Source: a virus
IMG/VR virus record: IMGVR_UViG_3300033149_001257
Coordinates: 46,458-110,457 of that record
Direction: 5' to 3' (one strand)
Length of the DNA stretch: 64,000 nucleotides
Below are positions 26,163-46,515 of this stretch, one piece after another (the first letter of the stretch is position 1; each line of letters begins with the position of its first letter). The translations under genes and the position numbers were made by a program. A model generated the notes under the pieces. The model saw only the letters and a list, made by a program, of their open reading frames with translations. It was not told the origin of the DNA and made no database searches.

Positions 26163-26240
26163 TTGGCACTCTCCATGTGGGGATTCTCAGGACTAAGCCT
26201 GAAGGCTCTGCCCGAGCCCTGTGTGCTTATTGCCACATTA
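26163..26240 (-). ncRNA. Stand-alone TnpB omegaRNA scaffold copy 3 (putative guide from 26162 downward: UACUAACUCGUAGAUGUUGA)
   Basis: Homologous to the tnpB 3' end/right end; 21-nt identity with copy 2; ends GAGAGTGCCAA; begins at the capsid stop codon. Confidence 0.75.
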
Positions 26241-27904: not shown

Positions 27905-29974
27905 TTAAAACGCACCTTCTACATTAGAAACAATGCCTGTTGAAGCAACTGCCTGGACTGAGGGTTTGAGTGTTTCTTTGCCCTTAGTATCGGTCGTGCT
28001 TGCTGTTGCTTTGGTGGCCGTGGCTTTCAGATCCTCTTTCCATGCCACAAACTCTTTTTCGCCAACTTCGTCAAAACCAAACCTGCCCATCTGCTCTTTC
28101 TTATACTCAGAAAGCTCAATACCGGAATCCTTTATATCTTTATCACGAGCTGCTACTTTCGTGGCTATCTCAGCCTGTTCAGTCCTGTCAGTTTCAACCG
28201 CTGCCTTAATTCCCACCTTGACGGCTTCGGCAATCTCGGTCTTGACTGTTTCGGCATCTTTGTAATCTTTAAACTTATCAGTCATTTCAGTTTCTTTCTC
28301 AGAAACCGCGCTTCCAGCAACTTCCTGCATTGCCGATACTATCGCAGTGGCTGCCAGCGTTACCTGGTCCCCTGTCAAATCAAACGTCTTAAACAAACTT
28401 GCTACACTTTCCGGCATCTTCAGTGTCGTTAAGTCCATGTCATTTCCTCCTTTTACTAAATTTTTTATTTCATTTATGTGCGAAACCATTTGCCCCATCG
28501 TCATGCTACCCGTGTCTATGCTCATTTCGTTAAGCCTTATATCTTTCATGCTTTTCTTTGCCGATACTTCCAATGTCCTCGATGCTGTACTCCTGAGCTC
28601 TTTCTTGCTGATTGATTTAGTCTTTGGCTCTATGTGGTCAGCCATGATTAAAGCGCTCCTTAAATGAGCCAAATCAATATGCCCTGCCCCATCTTTATAG
28701 GGAAGGTGCCTGGAATCCTTATCCTTGGATGCTCCACTTATATAGTCAGGCTCTATCGCTGCAAACGAGCTATCCGGTAGAGCGTCAATAAACGTCTTTG
28801 TCCATTTTTCAACAGTGTCTGTTTTTACAAACTCACTCGCTAATGAAAAATATCTCGGTGATTCAAACCCACCATCCTTTTCCTCTATTACTGAATATGA
28901 CGAATATACCCTTATCCCATCATCGTCATTACTGTCCATGTATGCACAAAAATCAAAAGTGTCAAACTTTACTTCCTTATCATTTATTTCTATTCTCGTA
29001 CCACCGGCAGTTTTATCAGTCTCTATCAGTATTCTTGTTTTCTTCATAGTGTCTCCTCCTGTAGATTTTTGTCCAGGGCCCGGTCTGTCGGCCCTTCTCA
29101 TCTGTCCCCCACAACTGCTGCATGTCTGGTCTTTGCAGTGACTCGTAGATGTCGCCTTTTTCCCACATTCAATACATTCACATTCGTATTTGGTAGCTCC
29201 TGATTCTACTTTATCTTCAACCTTCTTGCCATCCTTGTTCGTAAGAGAACCGTCGCTGGCTACGGCGAGATTTAAGGGCTCAAAACCATTTGCGTTGCGA
29301 TCAGCTGGTGAGAGCGTCAATGCCGCCCCAACAAAGACTACGTTGCCATTCTCGCCACCAAGTGCAAATTCCATTGGTTTATCTTTGTATGGTAGGCACC
29401 GGTCCTCAGAAAGACATTCCTTCATGTCGTCGGTGGCATCTTCATAGTTGATAAAATTGCCACCGAGGAAGAAAGCCGAGTCAGAATAAGAAAAAAGGCA
29501 CTCCATCGATGATTTATACTCGGCCAGCCCTGCATCGTACAACTCAAGAATGTCCCTCACCTTCTTTATTCTCTTGTATAGTACGCCATACATGGTTACG
29601 GGGACCGCCTCTGCCGGAACAGCCACATCTCCCGCATCTCCCATGCTAACATCAATTATATGCCCAAGTATGTCATTGTCGTCTTTTTTGGGATTGTTGG
29701 CATTATCCTCAATCCTGTGCTCAAGATTTACCATGTTATGCGGCACCGTATTAATTGAGTTGGACAACACCTTATATGAAAAACATCTGTTTTTTGAATT
29801 TGAAATAGGAAGAGAGTTGCATAAGATGAGCTTGAAAAACTGTAAAGATGAATTCGGCGTGAGCTTAACTCCCGATGCCAACGAAATCGGTTCTTTTATA
29901 AATGATACTTTGGCATCTCCAAGCGCAAATCTTTTTTTGTTTTCCAATTTTTTTTCTCCATAAAAAAAAGACAT
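27905..29974 (-). CDS. Prohead protease / scaffold protein with zinc-ribbon insertion
   Basis: NSKNRCF, VNLEH, ILGHI, SSMEC and VFVGAAL..SPAD motifs; CECIECG..C....CSSCGG insert; coiled-coil C-terminal scaffold. Start at ATG 29974 with AAGGAG 7 nt upstream. Confidence 0.8.
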   Translation of the reverse strand: MSFFYGEKKLENKKRFALGDAKVSFIKEPISLASGVKLTPNSSLQFFKLILCNSLPISNSKNRCFSYKVLSNSINTVPHNMVNLEHRIEDNANNPKKDDNDILGHIIDVSMGDAGDVAVPAEAVPVTMYGVLYKRIKKVRDILELYDAGLAEYKSSMECLFSYSDSAFFLGGNFINYEDATDDMKECLSEDRCLPYKDKPMEFALGGENGNVVFVGAALTLSPADRNANGFEPLNLAVASDGSLTNKDGKKVEDKVESGATKYECECIECGKKATSTSHCKDQTCSSCGGQMRRADRPGPGQKSTGGDTMKKTRILIETDKTAGGTRIEINDKEVKFDTFDFCAYMDSNDDDGIRVYSSYSVIEEKDGGFESPRYFSLASEFVKTDTVEKWTKTFIDALPDSSFAAIEPDYISGASKDKDSRHLPYKDGAGHIDLAHLRSALIMADHIEPKTKSISKKELRSTASRTLEVSAKKSMKDIRLNEMSIDTGSMTMGQMVSHINEIKNLVKGGNDMDLTTLKMPESVASLFKTFDLTGDQVTLAATAIVSAMQEVAGSAVSEKETEMTDKFKDYKDAETVKTEIAEAVKVGIKAAVETDRTEQAEIATKVAARDKDIKDSGIELSEYKKEQMGRFGFDEVGEKEFVAWKEDLKATATKATASTTDTKGKETLKPSVQAVASTGIVSNVEGAF

Positions 29975-30067
29975 TGACACTCTCCTTTAAGGAGATTCTC
30001 AGGTTGAGGATACGGAATCCTGAAGGCTCTGCCCGAGCCTTAAAATGTTTATCGCCACATTATGGTC
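29974..30067 (-). ncRNA. Stand-alone TnpB omegaRNA scaffold copy 2, forming the 5' UTR of the protease gene
   Basis: Encodes a relic DHNVAINILRLGQSLQ (TnpB C-terminus); has GGCTC/GAGCC, TCAGG/CCTGA and TCTCCT/AGGAGA stems; ends GAGAGTGTCAA. Confidence 0.8.
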
Positions 30068-30096
30068 ACAACCTAATTCAAAACCATAAAGTCAAT

Positions 30097-30147
30097 AAAA
30101 AAATGGCAATACACATTATCAGTTAATTTTGATAATACATATTGCCA
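30097..30147 (-). terminator. Intrinsic terminator
   Basis: 18-bp stem (three G.U pairs that work only on the minus strand) followed by a U7 run. Confidence 0.8.
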
Positions 30148-30211
30148 CTTCAAGTACATTGATGAGGGGGTTGCCCTCGGGCTTTTTCTGGTACTTCGCT
30201 GTCTGAGGGTA

Positions 30212-30240
30212 ATTATATCAGATATTTATTGTTTTGTCAA
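30212..30240 (-). promoter_or_regulatory. Consensus sigma70 promoter
   Basis: TTGACA-17-TATAAT. Confidence 0.85.
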
Positions 30241-30390: not shown

Positions 30391-30441
30391 CCCATTCATC
30401 CCCGCGGTTAAAATCGGAGGTTTTCTGGGATGTTTCTATAA
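30391..30441 (-). mobile_element. IS200/IS605 left-end hairpin with TTAT target motif
   Basis: TTAT|AGAAACATCCCAGAAAACCTCCGATTTTAACCGCGGGGATGAATGGG resembles the right-end palindrome of the adjacent element. Confidence 0.65.
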
Positions 30442-30949: not shown

Positions 30950-31051
30950 TTGACACTCTCCGTGGCTAAAGCCGGGAGATTCTCGGGACTTCTATGAAGC
31001 CTTCCGAATGGCCTGCCCAGCCATTAAAATATTCATTGCTGCGTTGTGGTC
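30950..31051 (-). ncRNA. TnpB omegaRNA (reRNA) scaffold / IS right end; putative guide from 30949 downward: AUAUUGUUUUAGCUGUUUAA
   Basis: Overlaps the tnpB 3' end; subterminal hairpin CTCCCGGCTTTAGCCACGGAG followed by GTGTCAA. Confidence 0.85.
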
Positions 31052-32083
31052 ACGACCTATCTCCAAACCACACCTACACTTATGCACACGAACTGACAAT
31101 TCTTTTTTGACTATCTTTCCACACTTTGAGCACATCTGGGATGTGTTTTTGGCAGGAACCTCAATGACTTCTTTTCCAACTTCTTCCGCTTTGAAACGAA
31201 GTATATTGAAGAAATTAAACCAAGCAACATCCCTCATAGACCGATTGAGCTTTCTGAATGTTTTCCAACTGTGAAGTTTTTCTATACAGATTATGTCGTT
31301 CTCTTTAACCAACTTATTAGCAACTTTAAAATGAAAATCTCGTCTTTGGTTGGCAATCTTTTCGTGAACCTTAGCGACAAGCAACTTTGCCTTTTTTCTT
31401 CTACTGGAACCTCTCTTTTTACGAGAAAGCGCTTGTTGGCGCTCAGTCAGAACACTATCGGCCTCATTAAGAAATCGGGGATTATCTATGGAATTACCAT
31501 TAGAGTCGGTCAGAAAAGATTCACAGCCCACGTCAATACCGATAGTCTTGCCAGTTTTGGACAACGGTTTACCAGGAACATCTTTACAGGAAAAACAAGC
31601 AAACCATTTCCCGGCTGGGGTTTTGCGGATAGTTACGGTTTTAATTGCGCCCTCGGTAGGCCGAGAAAGTTTCATCTTGAACTTACCAATTTTATTAATA
31701 GTAAAGCACCTTCCGTTAAGTTTCCATCCACATTGTTTAAGTGTGAAAGAATCGTATCTTCCCATCCCCTTGAATCTCGGGAACCCAGCCTTTTCCCCGG
31801 ACTTAACTCTACGGAAAAAAGATTGGTATGATTTATTGAGACGCTCAGTCACGTCCTGGAGTGATTCACTTGGCACTTTTTTAAATTCGGGAAAACCTTT
31901 TTTCAGGTCGGAAAGCTGATTCGCTTGGTCATACCCGGAAATAAATTTCCCGTGACATTTCCAAGCATTTATTCTCTGCTCAAGGCAGAGATTATAAAGT
32001 ATTCTGCAAAGATTAAGAACTTCTTCGGTTTTGGTGAGAGTTTCTCGATTGGCATATATTCTATATTTAAAAGTCTTTTTCAT
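30992..32083 (-). CDS. tnpB: RNA-guided endonuclease TnpB (IS200/IS605)
   Basis: KTFKYRIY HTH, GFPRFK, RuvC-I GIDVG, RuvC-II ICIEKL, TSQMCSKCG zinc finger, RuvC-III RDHNAAMNI; all three catalytic residues present. Confidence 0.95.
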   Translation of the reverse strand: MKKTFKYRIYANRETLTKTEEVLNLCRILYNLCLEQRINAWKCHGKFISGYDQANQLSDLKKGFPEFKKVPSESLQDVTERLNKSYQSFFRRVKSGEKAGFPRFKGMGRYDSFTLKQCGWKLNGRCFTINKIGKFKMKLSRPTEGAIKTVTIRKTPAGKWFACFSCKDVPGKPLSKTGKTIGIDVGCESFLTDSNGNSIDNPRFLNEADSVLTERQQALSRKKRGSSRRKKAKLLVAKVHEKIANQRRDFHFKVANKLVKENDIICIEKLHSWKTFRKLNRSMRDVAWFNFFNILRFKAEEVGKEVIEVPAKNTSQMCSKCGKIVKKELSVRVHKCRCGLEIGRDHNAAMNILMAGQAIRKAS

Positions 32084-32469
32084 TTTTTTGATTGCTCCTC
32101 TATATATTTTTTCACAACCTTACTTGATATATTTCCGGCAGTACATACAAAATATGAATGAGTCCATAGAGAGGGAATTTTTAGCAGGTGTGGAAATTCT
32201 CTACGAAGATAATTTGATGTTCTTCCCTTGAATGCTTTTATTATTTTATGGATAGATATTGTGGGGTATGCTGAAACAAAAACATGGAGATGATCTGGTT
32301 GAATCTCAAAAGCAATTATGTCTATACTTTTTTCTTTAGCAACTTCTCGCATGATTACGCGAAGTCTATTTTTTACTTTTCCTATCAGAACTTTTTTTCT
32401 TCTCTTCGGGCACCATATCAGGTGGTAGTTTATGAGATATATTTGATTGCGTGAATGTTTATATTTCAT
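32080..32469 (-). CDS. tnpA: Y1 HUH transposase TnpA (IS200/IS605)
   Basis: YHLIWCPKRRK, DHLH, KGRTS, LW..SYFV.T.G and YIEEQ motifs. Confidence 0.95.
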   Translation of the reverse strand: MKYKHSRNQIYLINYHLIWCPKRRKKVLIGKVKNRLRVIMREVAKEKSIDIIAFEIQPDHLHVFVSAYPTISIHKIIKAFKGRTSNYLRREFPHLLKIPSLWTHSYFVCTAGNISSKVVKKYIEEQSKK

Positions 32470-32478
32470 CTTGTTGAT

Positions 32479-32507
32479 AGTATAGCATATATCAACAATC
32501 TTGTCAA
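32479..32507 (-). promoter_or_regulatory. sigma70 promoter for tnpA-tnpB (near-leaderless), overlapped by an inverted repeat
   Basis: TTGACA-17-TATACT, ATG 9 nt after the -10; TTGTTGATA...TATCAACAA palindrome. Confidence 0.8.
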
Positions 32508-32515
32508 GGAAAAAA

Positions 32516-34315
32516 TTACTTTTTCTTTTTCGTCCACTTCTTTGTCTTGGGGTCCTGTTTGTAGGTTTCCTTTACTACCGACCACGCCTTCCTGGCAGCA
32601 ACAGCATCTTTGTCGCCTGCCTTCTTTCTTTCCTTATAGACCTTTTCCCATATAGAAACTCCCCCTTTGGGTAGCGATCCCAGGACTGCAACTTCGAGTG
32701 CAAACTCCTCTATGTCATCTGCATATGGGTCCAAATAAAGATGTACGGCATCCTTTGCTGTTGAGGGCCTTGGTTTATTGTCTAGGTCGCCATCTTTTGT
32801 TCTTGGCCTGCCATTCTCATCCATGTTATCGTTTTTCTTATCACCTGCAAGCATCGTGAGTGCCAAGAACGACTGCCCCTGGCTTTTCTCGAAGATGGGT
32901 GTGTAATCCATTGGGTTTTCCTGTTCTTTCTTTTTTCTGGCTAAAATATTAGATGAGTGCCTACCCGTCTCTTCCAGTACCGTGCCGGCATCCATTATGC
33001 CTTGTGAATATAAAACCTTGAGCTCTTCTATCAATACTCTTGGTTCTTTAAGCGCCTGCTCATCAAATCGTACCTTGGGTATGCTTGTTTCTTTTATGAA
33101 GGATTTCCCTGCCCTTCCGTCGGCAGCTATCACATAAACTTCTTCCCACATCCTTGATATTATCCTACGGAGTTTCTTTATGTATGCGATTAAATCCTTC
33201 ATTTTTATATACATCATGCTGTAATTTCCACCTGTTCCAGAAATAAGACTAGACCCTAAATGCGACCATGCCGTTATCCTTTCTAACAGCGCAGAATATT
33301 TCTCCGGTGCCCATACTTTGGGGTCCGGGAAAACATATTTCATTTCCCAGTAATGTTGGGTAAATATCCTTAAAGCCTTTGATACGTTACGGAAGTTGCT
33401 CTTCATTGCCTTTAAATCAGCATCGTTTACCATGTAGGCCTTACTGCCTGCTTTCTGGCCAGATTTAATGGACTCTCCTCCTTTTACATGCAAAACCACG
33501 TTTTTAGTGTAAAAGGCCACCTGTGAATCACCGTCTATGAGCATTTCCAGGATAGATATATCGTAGAATATAGACTGCATCCGCGGGGGGATAAGCCTGT
33601 CGTTTAGCCCCTTTTCGTTCTTCAGTATCACATATTCCCCATCAGCCTCGCTCATTAGCGCATACTGGCGTGTTTCGTCAGCCCCGTTGCCATTGGCTGC
33701 CTCGTAAAATTTCTTTGCTGTAGCATCCTCGCCTATAAGCGATTCTATTGCTGTTCTTGCGTTTTCATCGGAATTAGAAACAGTGAAAACCTTTGCCATC
33801 TCGGCATCTGGTTTCACATACACCAACTTCTTGCCCCACAATGGAACCACCTTACACAACTCGGGGTCAAGCATTACGATGTAATCTATTTTCTTTGTTT
33901 GCGTATCCTTTTTTACCAGGATAAGGGCATTTGACTTCGTTACCATGTTTTCCCATGTAGTGAGCATCCTACTGTCAATGTCGTGTTCTTTACCGAAATC
34001 ATCGAAAAACTTACCGGCAACCTTTTCGTCAGGAGTTGAGTTATGGTATCCTGCCATTCCAAAGTTTACCGTGGTATCAACTATCGCCTGGATATAAGCA
34101 TTTTCATCCCGATACTTTTGAGCCCTACTGAATTTATCTGTAAGGTCCACAGGGATAGCGTTCTGCCTCATATTCTTTAATACCCCAGTATTGGCATAGT
34201 TATCAAGTGACATTGCCACCAATTCCCCATTGCCGTCCATGGTCCATCCTACCATTGGGGCCATCTCCTTTTTACCTGTAGATTTATTTGTTTTACCTGG
34301 TTTTCTTTTGGCCAT
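32516..34315 (-). CDS. Portal protein with C-terminal ChaB-like domain
   Basis: Position after TerL, size and GRP tail motif; C-terminal LPKGGVSIWEKVY...AARKAWSVVKETYKQ...W. Confidence 0.75.
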   Translation of the reverse strand: MAKRKPGKTNKSTGKKEMAPMVGWTMDGNGELVAMSLDNYANTGVLKNMRQNAIPVDLTDKFSRAQKYRDENAYIQAIVDTTVNFGMAGYHNSTPDEKVAGKFFDDFGKEHDIDSRMLTTWENMVTKSNALILVKKDTQTKKIDYIVMLDPELCKVVPLWGKKLVYVKPDAEMAKVFTVSNSDENARTAIESLIGEDATAKKFYEAANGNGADETRQYALMSEADGEYVILKNEKGLNDRLIPPRMQSIFYDISILEMLIDGDSQVAFYTKNVVLHVKGGESIKSGQKAGSKAYMVNDADLKAMKSNFRNVSKALRIFTQHYWEMKYVFPDPKVWAPEKYSALLERITAWSHLGSSLISGTGGNYSMMYIKMKDLIAYIKKLRRIISRMWEEVYVIAADGRAGKSFIKETSIPKVRFDEQALKEPRVLIEELKVLYSQGIMDAGTVLEETGRHSSNILARKKKEQENPMDYTPIFEKSQGQSFLALTMLAGDKKNDNMDENGRPRTKDGDLDNKPRPSTAKDAVHLYLDPYADDIEEFALEVAVLGSLPKGGVSIWEKVYKERKKAGDKDAVAARKAWSVVKETYKQDPKTKKWTKKKK

Positions 34316-37525: not shown

Positions 37526-37600
37526 GTGGGGTGTGGACACTTCCCTCGGTACTAAGGCTTTGCCTGAACCCGGCTCCGATGAGTCTGCACCCCGCTTTTT
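37526..37600 (+). terminator. Leader hairpin / possible attenuator whose loop is antisense to the omegaRNA scaffold
   Basis: 13-bp stem GTGGGGTGTGGAC/GTCTGCACCCCGC (G.U pairs favour the plus strand) followed by T5. Confidence 0.55.
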
Positions 37601-46328: not shown

Positions 46329-46515
46329 AGCTGACTATGTATATTCTACTAAGTGTGATGGTGATAAATGTAGGGTGGTTCTCAATAAAGTATTTTTTGA
46401 TATAGCCACAATGGTAGAGCATCTGAAAAAAAGAGGATGGTCAGTAAATACAATGGTGGGGAAATGCTTTTGCCCCGAATGTAGTAAAAAGGAGAATAAG
46501 AATGGAAAACGATAA
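46321..46515 (+). CDS. Small zinc-finger protein
   Basis: CDG..C...GW......FCPEC. Confidence 0.55.
   Translation: MFRADYVYSTKCDGDKCRVVLNKVFFDIATMVEHLKKRGWSVNTMVGKCFCPECSKKENKNGKR

Follow-up and report, generated by a model that had tools for sequence, protein, structure and literature searches.

A gene-less IS608-type element beside a phage prohead protease gene: a probable transposon fossil with an accidental start codon

Introduction

In Salmonella IS200, a hairpin in the tnpA leader occludes the Shine-Dalgarno (SD) sequence of that gene. In IS608, 19 nt separate TTAC from the left hairpin, the guide is AAAG and the right end closes in TCAA (PMC3201880). TnpB binds its scaffold within longer RNAs, trims the 5′ side only and leaves 3′ extensions in place, with a scaffold of ~106 nt (Nety et al. 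2023, PMC10278001). TldRs are phage-encoded, nuclease-dead, TnpB-derived RNA-guided repressors that lack RuvC activity and block transcription via DNA binding (PMC10705468). Here we describe a locus in IMG/VR virus record IMGVR_UViG_3300033149_001257 where the right end of an IS608-like element runs directly into the reading frame of a prohead protease gene. The window analysed is the stretch of 64,000 nucleotides from position 46,458 to 110,457, the last 64 kb of this 110,457-bp record, which is ~66% complete.

A sequence-only reading of the window had proposed that the guide-RNA (omegaRNA) scaffold of the element supplies and sequesters the ribosome-binding site and start codon of the protease gene, and that TnpB binding would switch its translation. 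Our analysis favors a plainer account as the probable one, namely that this right end (RE2) belongs to a non-autonomous IS608-type (IS200/IS605) fossil, that the ATG at its junction with the gene is accidental, and that a TTG further downstream is retained as the likely main start.

The right end and its junction with the protease gene

The following features were located at the junction; here and below, coordinates are those of the window unless stated otherwise.

29974-30088, minus strand: truncated omegaRNA scaffold and right end (RE2), with covarying stems
29998-29995, minus strand: guide tetranucleotide-like GAAT
29995-29981, minus strand: terminal hairpin TCTCCT/TAA/AGGAGA, 6 bp with a 3-nt loop
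29987-29982, minus strand: SD-like AAGGAG in the loop and 3′ arm of the hairpin, 7 nt upstream of the junction ATG
29977-29974, minus strand: element terminus TCAA
29974-29972, minus strand: junction ATG, in frame with the 27905-29974 open reading frame (ORF); the element contributes the A, its last base, and the flank the TG
29945-29959, minus strand: native-type initiation region, composed of GGAG (29959-29956), eight A's and TTG (29947-29945)
27905-29974, minus strand: fusion gene for the prohead protease, encoding 689 aa if read from the ATG and 680 aa if read from the TTG

The minus-strand string quoted in the sequence-only reading for the scaffold/protease junction was found letter for letter, and its identification of the stretch as a TnpB guide-RNA scaffold and right end is borne out by comparison with the 3′ end and right end (RE4) of a second tnpB gene in the record, tnpB-2. 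RE4, 60 kb away, is the nearest of the other copies, with 83% identity over 113 nt, rising to ~90% over the last 70 nt of the scaffold. RE2 comprises the last ~29 codons of a TnpB-2-like protein, which still read as its C-terminus, as well as a conserved stem, two hairpins (a variable one and the short terminal one) and the terminal TCAA. RNAalifold applied to nine scaffold copies gave 15 pairs, seven of them with compensatory changes, and both helices are retained in RE2; no Rfam family matched the scaffold at the gathering threshold. The window has two occurrences of the composite right-end motif, against none in 100 shuffles.

The coordinates also confirm three further points of that reading: the SD-like AAGGAG lies within the terminal hairpin (in its loop and 3′ arm), the last A of TCAA completes an in-frame ATG, and the would-be guide is the beginning of the protease reading frame. 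Upstream of the junction ATG, the protease frame is closed by an in-frame TAA in the hairpin loop. The terminal hairpin, including its closing pairs, has a predicted fold of -10.2 kcal/mol. GTG at 29980 was also considered as a start and was discarded, as its position falls within the SD itself.

Family ends were derived from bacterial TnpB relatives that are 61-67% identical (from Clostridia, Bacteroidetes and Actinomycetota metagenome-assembled genomes, MAGs). The family right end has a GAAT-type tetranucleotide, a hairpin and a TCAA terminus, and always closes with ...GGAGAGTGTCAA. The junction AUG exists because the right end invariably finishes in this way and the flank here starts with TG. 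To place this in context, we compiled 16 distinct family right ends (4 from this record, 4 bacterial and 8 from distinct viral contigs), in which a flank beginning with TG follows RE2 only (1/16 junctions, against 0/15 of the others). Base composition would yield about one TG flank per 16 junctions, and the junction ATG therefore does not exceed chance. The viral-contig scan likewise gave no second instance of a right end directly followed by TG.

A gene-less mini-element of 464 bp

RE2 can be joined to a left end, which delimits a complete element with the following parts.

30441-30438, minus strand: target tetranucleotide or target-adjacent motif (TAM), TTAT, directly 5′ of the left end and close behind the stop of an 82-aa ORF
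30437-29974, minus strand: gene-less IS608-like mini-element of 464 bp, with left-end motif and right end
30437-30392, minus strand: left end, the only left-end copy in the 110-kb record
30392-30420, minus strand: left-end subterminal hairpin and conserved tail, degenerate (one mismatch, and C for the bulged T)
30212-30240, minus strand: sigma-70-type promoter with 12/12 matches and a TG extension, resembling the family tnpA promoter
30095-30149, minus strand: terminator-like hairpin of 20 pairs with a T-run behind it, adjoining the 5′ side of the scaffold remnant

Left ends were located by a Hamming scan, and since the sole left end of the record sits at 30437-30392 behind TTAT, we take RE2 to be the right end of the 30437-29974 element. 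The scaffold does not belong to the adjacent tnpB-1 gene, which has its own right end at 30950, ~975 bp before that of RE2. In the mini-element, TTAT is followed by 17 nt and then by the hairpin at 30420. Among nine family left ends compared, the tetranucleotide is TTAC in seven and TTAT in two, and 16-19 nt further on comes a hairpin that has a bulged base, together with a conserved tail; the same layout of TTAC/TTAT, 16-19 nt and hairpin was seen in eight relatives. As the four bases that precede the hairpin, both left ends with TTAT have AAAA; AAAG is found there in L033 and L034, the closest of the TTAC relatives, and in 3/5 of the more distant ones. This pattern of TTAT/AAAA versus TTAC/AAAG is the pairing logic described for IS608 (PMC3201880).

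The interior of the mini-element has no minus-strand ORF of at least 50 aa. What it holds is the promoter, a leader of ~60 nt, the terminator-like hairpin and a scaffold remnant of 113 nt. No promoter-like site was found between the 30149-30095 hairpin and the protease gene, and head-gene transcripts must therefore read through this hairpin. Three of the four right ends in the record (RE2, RE3 and RE4) are without the inner stem and loop of the family right hairpin, and that of RE2 is cut to 6 bp. Given its degenerate left hairpin and truncated right hairpin, the mini-element looks immobile, and judging from their ends the same appears to hold for the transposon copies of this record in general. 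Two IMG/VR contigs (L114 and L115) also contain gene-less units, in which a left end and the tnpA promoter are fused without intervening genes to a scaffold of ~75 nt and a right end; mini-elements of this kind, with a promoter-driven, stand-alone guide RNA, thus seem to recur in phages.

When the element is removed in silico at TTAT/TG, the stop codon is followed by 35 nt containing GGAG-N8 and then by TTG. The sequence-only reading had correctly predicted that precise excision turns the junction codon into TTG, as the target motif derived here is TTAT. Its further claim that the element is thereby locked in does not stand, given that excision would restore the ancestral 35-nt intergenic region together with the native SD and start.

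The downstream gene encodes a gp21-like prohead protease

The protein encoded downstream of the junction is a fusion in which an N-terminal T4 gp21-like domain is combined with a zinc ribbon and a long C-terminal part. Its AlphaFold (AF2) model has a mean predicted local distance difference test (pLDDT) score of 87, with residues 1-10 below 50. VIA-align superposes the model on T4 gp21 (5jbl_A) with Z 12.5 and a root-mean-square deviation of 3.0 over 146/165 residues, and on herpesvirus proteases with Z 7.4 and 6.2; the top three Foldseek matches are all 5jbl. A full-library search with residues 1-245 returned 156 homologues, and an alignment of 47 sequences shows no variation at His86, Ser156 or Glu158. 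Together, these results agree with the sequence-only reading in identifying a head protease, and the model supports an assemblin-type (T4 gp21/herpesvirus) prohead serine protease. The protease has no Pfam or PHROG match, and the 46 aligned homologues have no match to a Pfam protease family. The alignment of the model with T4 gp21 starts from residue 11, and the ordered domain begins at about residue 11-13.

Searches with the region or the protease elsewhere gave little. Searched at near and at distant sensitivity, the GenBank phage collection gave nothing that matched the region, no protease match was found in 12 genomes of the class of one TnpB-bearing MAG or in three MAGs with related TnpBs, and scans of viral and metagenome contigs with the protease returned only distant proteins sharing the zinc ribbon. 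This four-cysteine ribbon lies at residues ~255-305 (28990-29210) and is followed by a strongly conserved M-R-R-A-D-R-P-G-P-G-Q; the stretch is 55-80% identical in many otherwise unrelated viral and metagenome proteins. A separate observation concerns database protein P0001 (599 aa), which is 100% identical from residue ~95 but begins M-P-T-I. That start corresponds to the +1 frame of the window just upstream of a run of six A's (29690-29700, codons 94-97). Another assembly of the phage apparently differs by one base in this run, through either an assembly error or real heterogeneity.

Choice of the start codon

The sequence-only reading had taken the junction ATG with its SD as the start of the gene. 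This is not what the comparisons favor: the GGAG-N8-TTG region is intact 27 nt downstream of the junction ATG, and the TTG at 29947 aligns with Met1 of the two closest homologues, P0002 and P0003 (71% and 66% identical), in which conserved sequence begins 3-4 residues after Met1. The TTG is also predicted to be far more accessible. We estimated start-site energetics with a crude model that takes the SD:anti-SD duplex energy together with the cost of opening the -18 to +13 footprint. For the junction AUG this gave a duplex of -9.1 kcal/mol with an opening cost of +14.4 kcal/mol, and for the TTG a duplex of -6.4 kcal/mol with +4.8 kcal/mol; by the same crude measure, five neighboring genes range from -8.3 to -11.7 kcal/mol for the duplex and from +2 to +7.5 kcal/mol for opening. 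Folding of longer leaders predicts the junction-site SD to be 66-94% paired.

Several points weigh against the TTG as main start and against an accidental ATG. ATG is used in 16/17 other gene starts inspected in the cluster, most of them with a AAAGGAGG-type SD 5-8 nt upstream, and the RE2 arrangement of AAAGGAG, 7 nt and ATG fits this phage pattern, in which GGAG-TTG would be an outlier. The start sites of the homologues are choices of gene callers, and the folding model leaves out ribosome standby, helicase activity and co-transcriptional folding. About one third of the more distant homologues carry the N-terminal motif M-[PSA]-[FY]-x-[FYW]-x-D, to which the 9-residue extension (beginning M-S-F-F-Y-G-E) is similar, and on the basis of this resemblance the junction codon, a TTG before insertion, could itself have been the ancestral start. 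Finally, the sequence-only reading had described the terminal hairpin as rebuilt. The shortened form itself is nothing particular to RE2, being common to RE3 and RE4, the latter belonging to an intact tnpB. The two A's that create AAAGGAG, on the other hand, occur in RE2 alone among the three short-hairpin copies, a sequence-based hint of selection for the SD. Taking both sides together, we put the TTG as main start at somewhat better than even, and both starts may be used.

Scaffold copies and tnpB genes in the record

In all, four scaffold/right-end copies (RE1 to RE4) were found in the whole record. Besides RE2, the relevant features are as follows.

right end at 30950, minus strand: RE1, the own right end of tnpB-1, with a TCAA terminus
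30950-32507, minus strand: neighboring insertion sequence (IS) copy made up of promoter, tnpA, tnpB-1 and RE1, without a left-end hairpin
30992-32083, minus strand: tnpB-1, 363 aa
32080-32469, minus strand: tnpA, a Y1 transposase with a full-length Pfam match
26163-26240, minus strand: RE3, a solo scaffold of ~78 nt downstream of a 355-aa ORF
G000:C1:16646-17818, outside the window: tnpB-2, 366 aa, with its own consensus promoter and RE4
outside the window: RE4, scaffold and right end that follow tnpB-2, the second intact tnpB

The minus-strand gene order is large terminase, a 599-aa protein in the portal position, tnpA and tnpB-1. In the unit 30950-32518, the -35 box of the tnpA promoter lies 8 nt after the stop of the 599-aa portal-position gene. 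The tnpA gene appears intact and is without a left end in cis. TnpB-2 is 79% identical to TnpB-1, and its gene has neither a tnpA nor a recognizable left-end hairpin; both proteins retain the RuvC D/E/D residues. RE3, which starts at the stop codon that closes the 355-aa ORF, has CCAA in place of the terminal TCAA and no longer has the variable hairpin; judged by these changes it appears clearly eroded. The flanks of RE3 and RE4 have a common 8-mer, CTCGTAGA, at almost equal offset; this 8-mer occurs seven times in the record, and the sharing may be due to chance.

We searched the rest of the record for targets of the four guides and found no TAM-flanked near-perfect match to any of them, and the guide of RE2 is of low complexity and gives only chance-level matches within the record. 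A candidate antisense mimic of the scaffold at 37536-37571 was rejected, as its best local alignment score of 22 is at the level of chance against a background (random 250-nt windows of the genome aligned to the RE2 antisense) with a mean of 20.7 and a 95th percentile of 28.

Possible explanations for the locus

We consider it probable that the locus arose in the following way. The element would have inserted 3′ of TTAT in the short spacer between the 82-aa gene and the prohead protease gene of a large phage, and would then have lost tnpA and nearly all of tnpB. It would have retained its left-end hairpin, its promoter, its terminator-like hairpin and ~113 nt from the end of the guide-RNA scaffold. 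Its TCAA terminus together with the TG flank would have created an accidental in-frame AUG behind an SD-like sequence that is paired in the terminal hairpin. The ancestral GGAG, 8 nt and TTG would survive 27 nt downstream and most likely still serve as the main start, and the junction AUG may give part of the protein a 9-residue N-terminal extension. This history is built on the anatomy, homology and insertion site of the element and on the fold of the protease, as demonstrated above; any effect of TnpB on the leader would, we infer, be a by-product of insertion and not an evolved switch.

An unlikely course of events is that the hairpin SD and junction AUG have been exapted as the main start, with the old start displaced or out-competed and with low, hairpin-damped expression of the protease in which TnpB has no role. 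The SD and its spacing match the phage consensus, ATG starts nearly all neighboring genes, the RE2-specific A's make the SD stronger and the N-terminal peptide is like the motif of distant homologues; a protease needed in low copy would presumably also tolerate a damped site. The predicted cost of unfolding the site is high, however, the closest homologues start nine residues later, and the structured domain begins only at about residue 11-13, all of which fit better with the TTG.

A second possibility that we hold to be doubtful is compatible with the fossil described above and makes the start-codon overlap irrelevant. Here, the scaffold would be retained for its guide RNA, with TnpB supplied in trans cutting the empty site (TTAT/TTAC plus protease leader) of co-infecting relatives, so that the element is copied by repair or the rivals are disabled. 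TnpB homing and gene drive by IS elements have been described. Four scaffolds accompany a single degenerate left end in 110 kb, and TnpA transposition cannot explain scaffold persistence under these circumstances; the tnpB genes are intact, and gene-less, scaffold-bearing mini-elements recur in phages. Against this, the upstream terminator argues against efficient stand-alone expression of the scaffold, RE3 is eroded, and the record holds no near-perfect TAM-flanked target elsewhere.

The TnpB-responsive switch of the sequence-only reading is possible by analogy with known TnpB systems, and we judge it improbable. It would have the SD and AUG of the element as the working start, and TnpB bound to the scaffold in the late mRNA would hold the guide segment with both start regions and so control protease translation and capsid maturation. 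The geometry is suggestive: the SD is in the hairpin, the guide position is taken by the AUG together with the opening ~20 nt of the ORF, and a bound ribonucleoprotein (RNP) would be expected to overlap the 30S footprint of both candidate starts. The 113-nt remnant is close to the processed scaffold length of 106 nt in AmaTnpB, and TnpB trims the 5′ side only and tolerates 3′ extensions (PMC10278001). Two tnpB genes encode intact RuvC D/E/D residues, the stems are kept with covariation, and the last 70 nt of RE2 are ~90% identical to the tnpB-2 scaffold. From the published biochemistry, binding of TnpB to the protease leader would be plausible. Yet the junction ATG is within chance expectation, the arrangement is unique in that no second right end with TG was found in viral contigs, the native start persists downstream, a terminator-like hairpin directly precedes the scaffold, and the element is generally decayed. 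The literature that we searched contained no report of a TnpB effect on an mRNA continuing 3′ of the scaffold.

Least probable of all, and very improbable in our view, is a combined scheme in which the two TnpB nucleases act on the immobile scaffolds in head-gene mRNA, cutting the late transcript 5′ of the scaffold, covering both starts and tying protease output and capsid maturation to the level of TnpB, with the same RNP cutting element-free rivals.

If the fossil reading is true, the locus is a well-resolved IS200/IS605 fossil in an essential phage operon. It would call for caution in annotating start sites beside IS200/IS605 elements and be an example of how such elements alter the N-termini of genes. 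Over the whole record, a single left end, itself degenerate, stands against four scaffolds and two tnpB genes that are intact, and scaffolds flank the head genes.

Comparison with known systems

The family shares with IS608 of Helicobacter pylori its insertion on the 3′ side of a TTAC-type tetranucleotide that is separated by ~19 nt from the left subterminal hairpin, the TCAA right end, left and right hairpins that are alike and carry a bulged base, a Y1 tnpA with tnpB, and the absence of inverted repeats. The mini-element departs from IS608 in having no genes, in the mismatch and the C for the bulged T in its left hairpin, in a right hairpin of only 6 bp, and in a TCAA that starts 3 nt from the foot of the hairpin, as opposed to 10 nt in IS608. 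In keeping both ends while losing coding capacity, and in its size of a few hundred bp, it resembles the IS200/IS605 derivatives akin to palindrome-associated transposable elements (PATEs) and miniature inverted-repeat transposable elements (MITEs). Unlike these, it has ~150 nt extra after the left end and a leader and strong terminator-like hairpin between promoter and scaffold, and it sits in a phage head operon.

With respect to translation, the likeness is to IS200: in both, a hairpin of an IS200/IS605-family element sequesters an SD and damps translation, as predicted for the element described here. IS200 controls its transposase through a left-end hairpin, whereas that of the mini-element is a right-end hairpin facing outward onto a phage gene. 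TldRs are similar in being phage-borne TnpB relatives with guide RNAs, which they use for gene regulation; both TnpBs of this record differ from them in retaining D/E/D, and the action proposed for TnpB at this locus would be on RNA. As in the TnpB omegaRNA (PMC10278001), the scaffold overlaps the 3′ end of tnpB sequence and ends at the element end, with the flank as guide. What sets this locus apart is that no tnpB is present in cis and that, in place of neutral flank, an essential phage mRNA follows the scaffold on its 3′ side.

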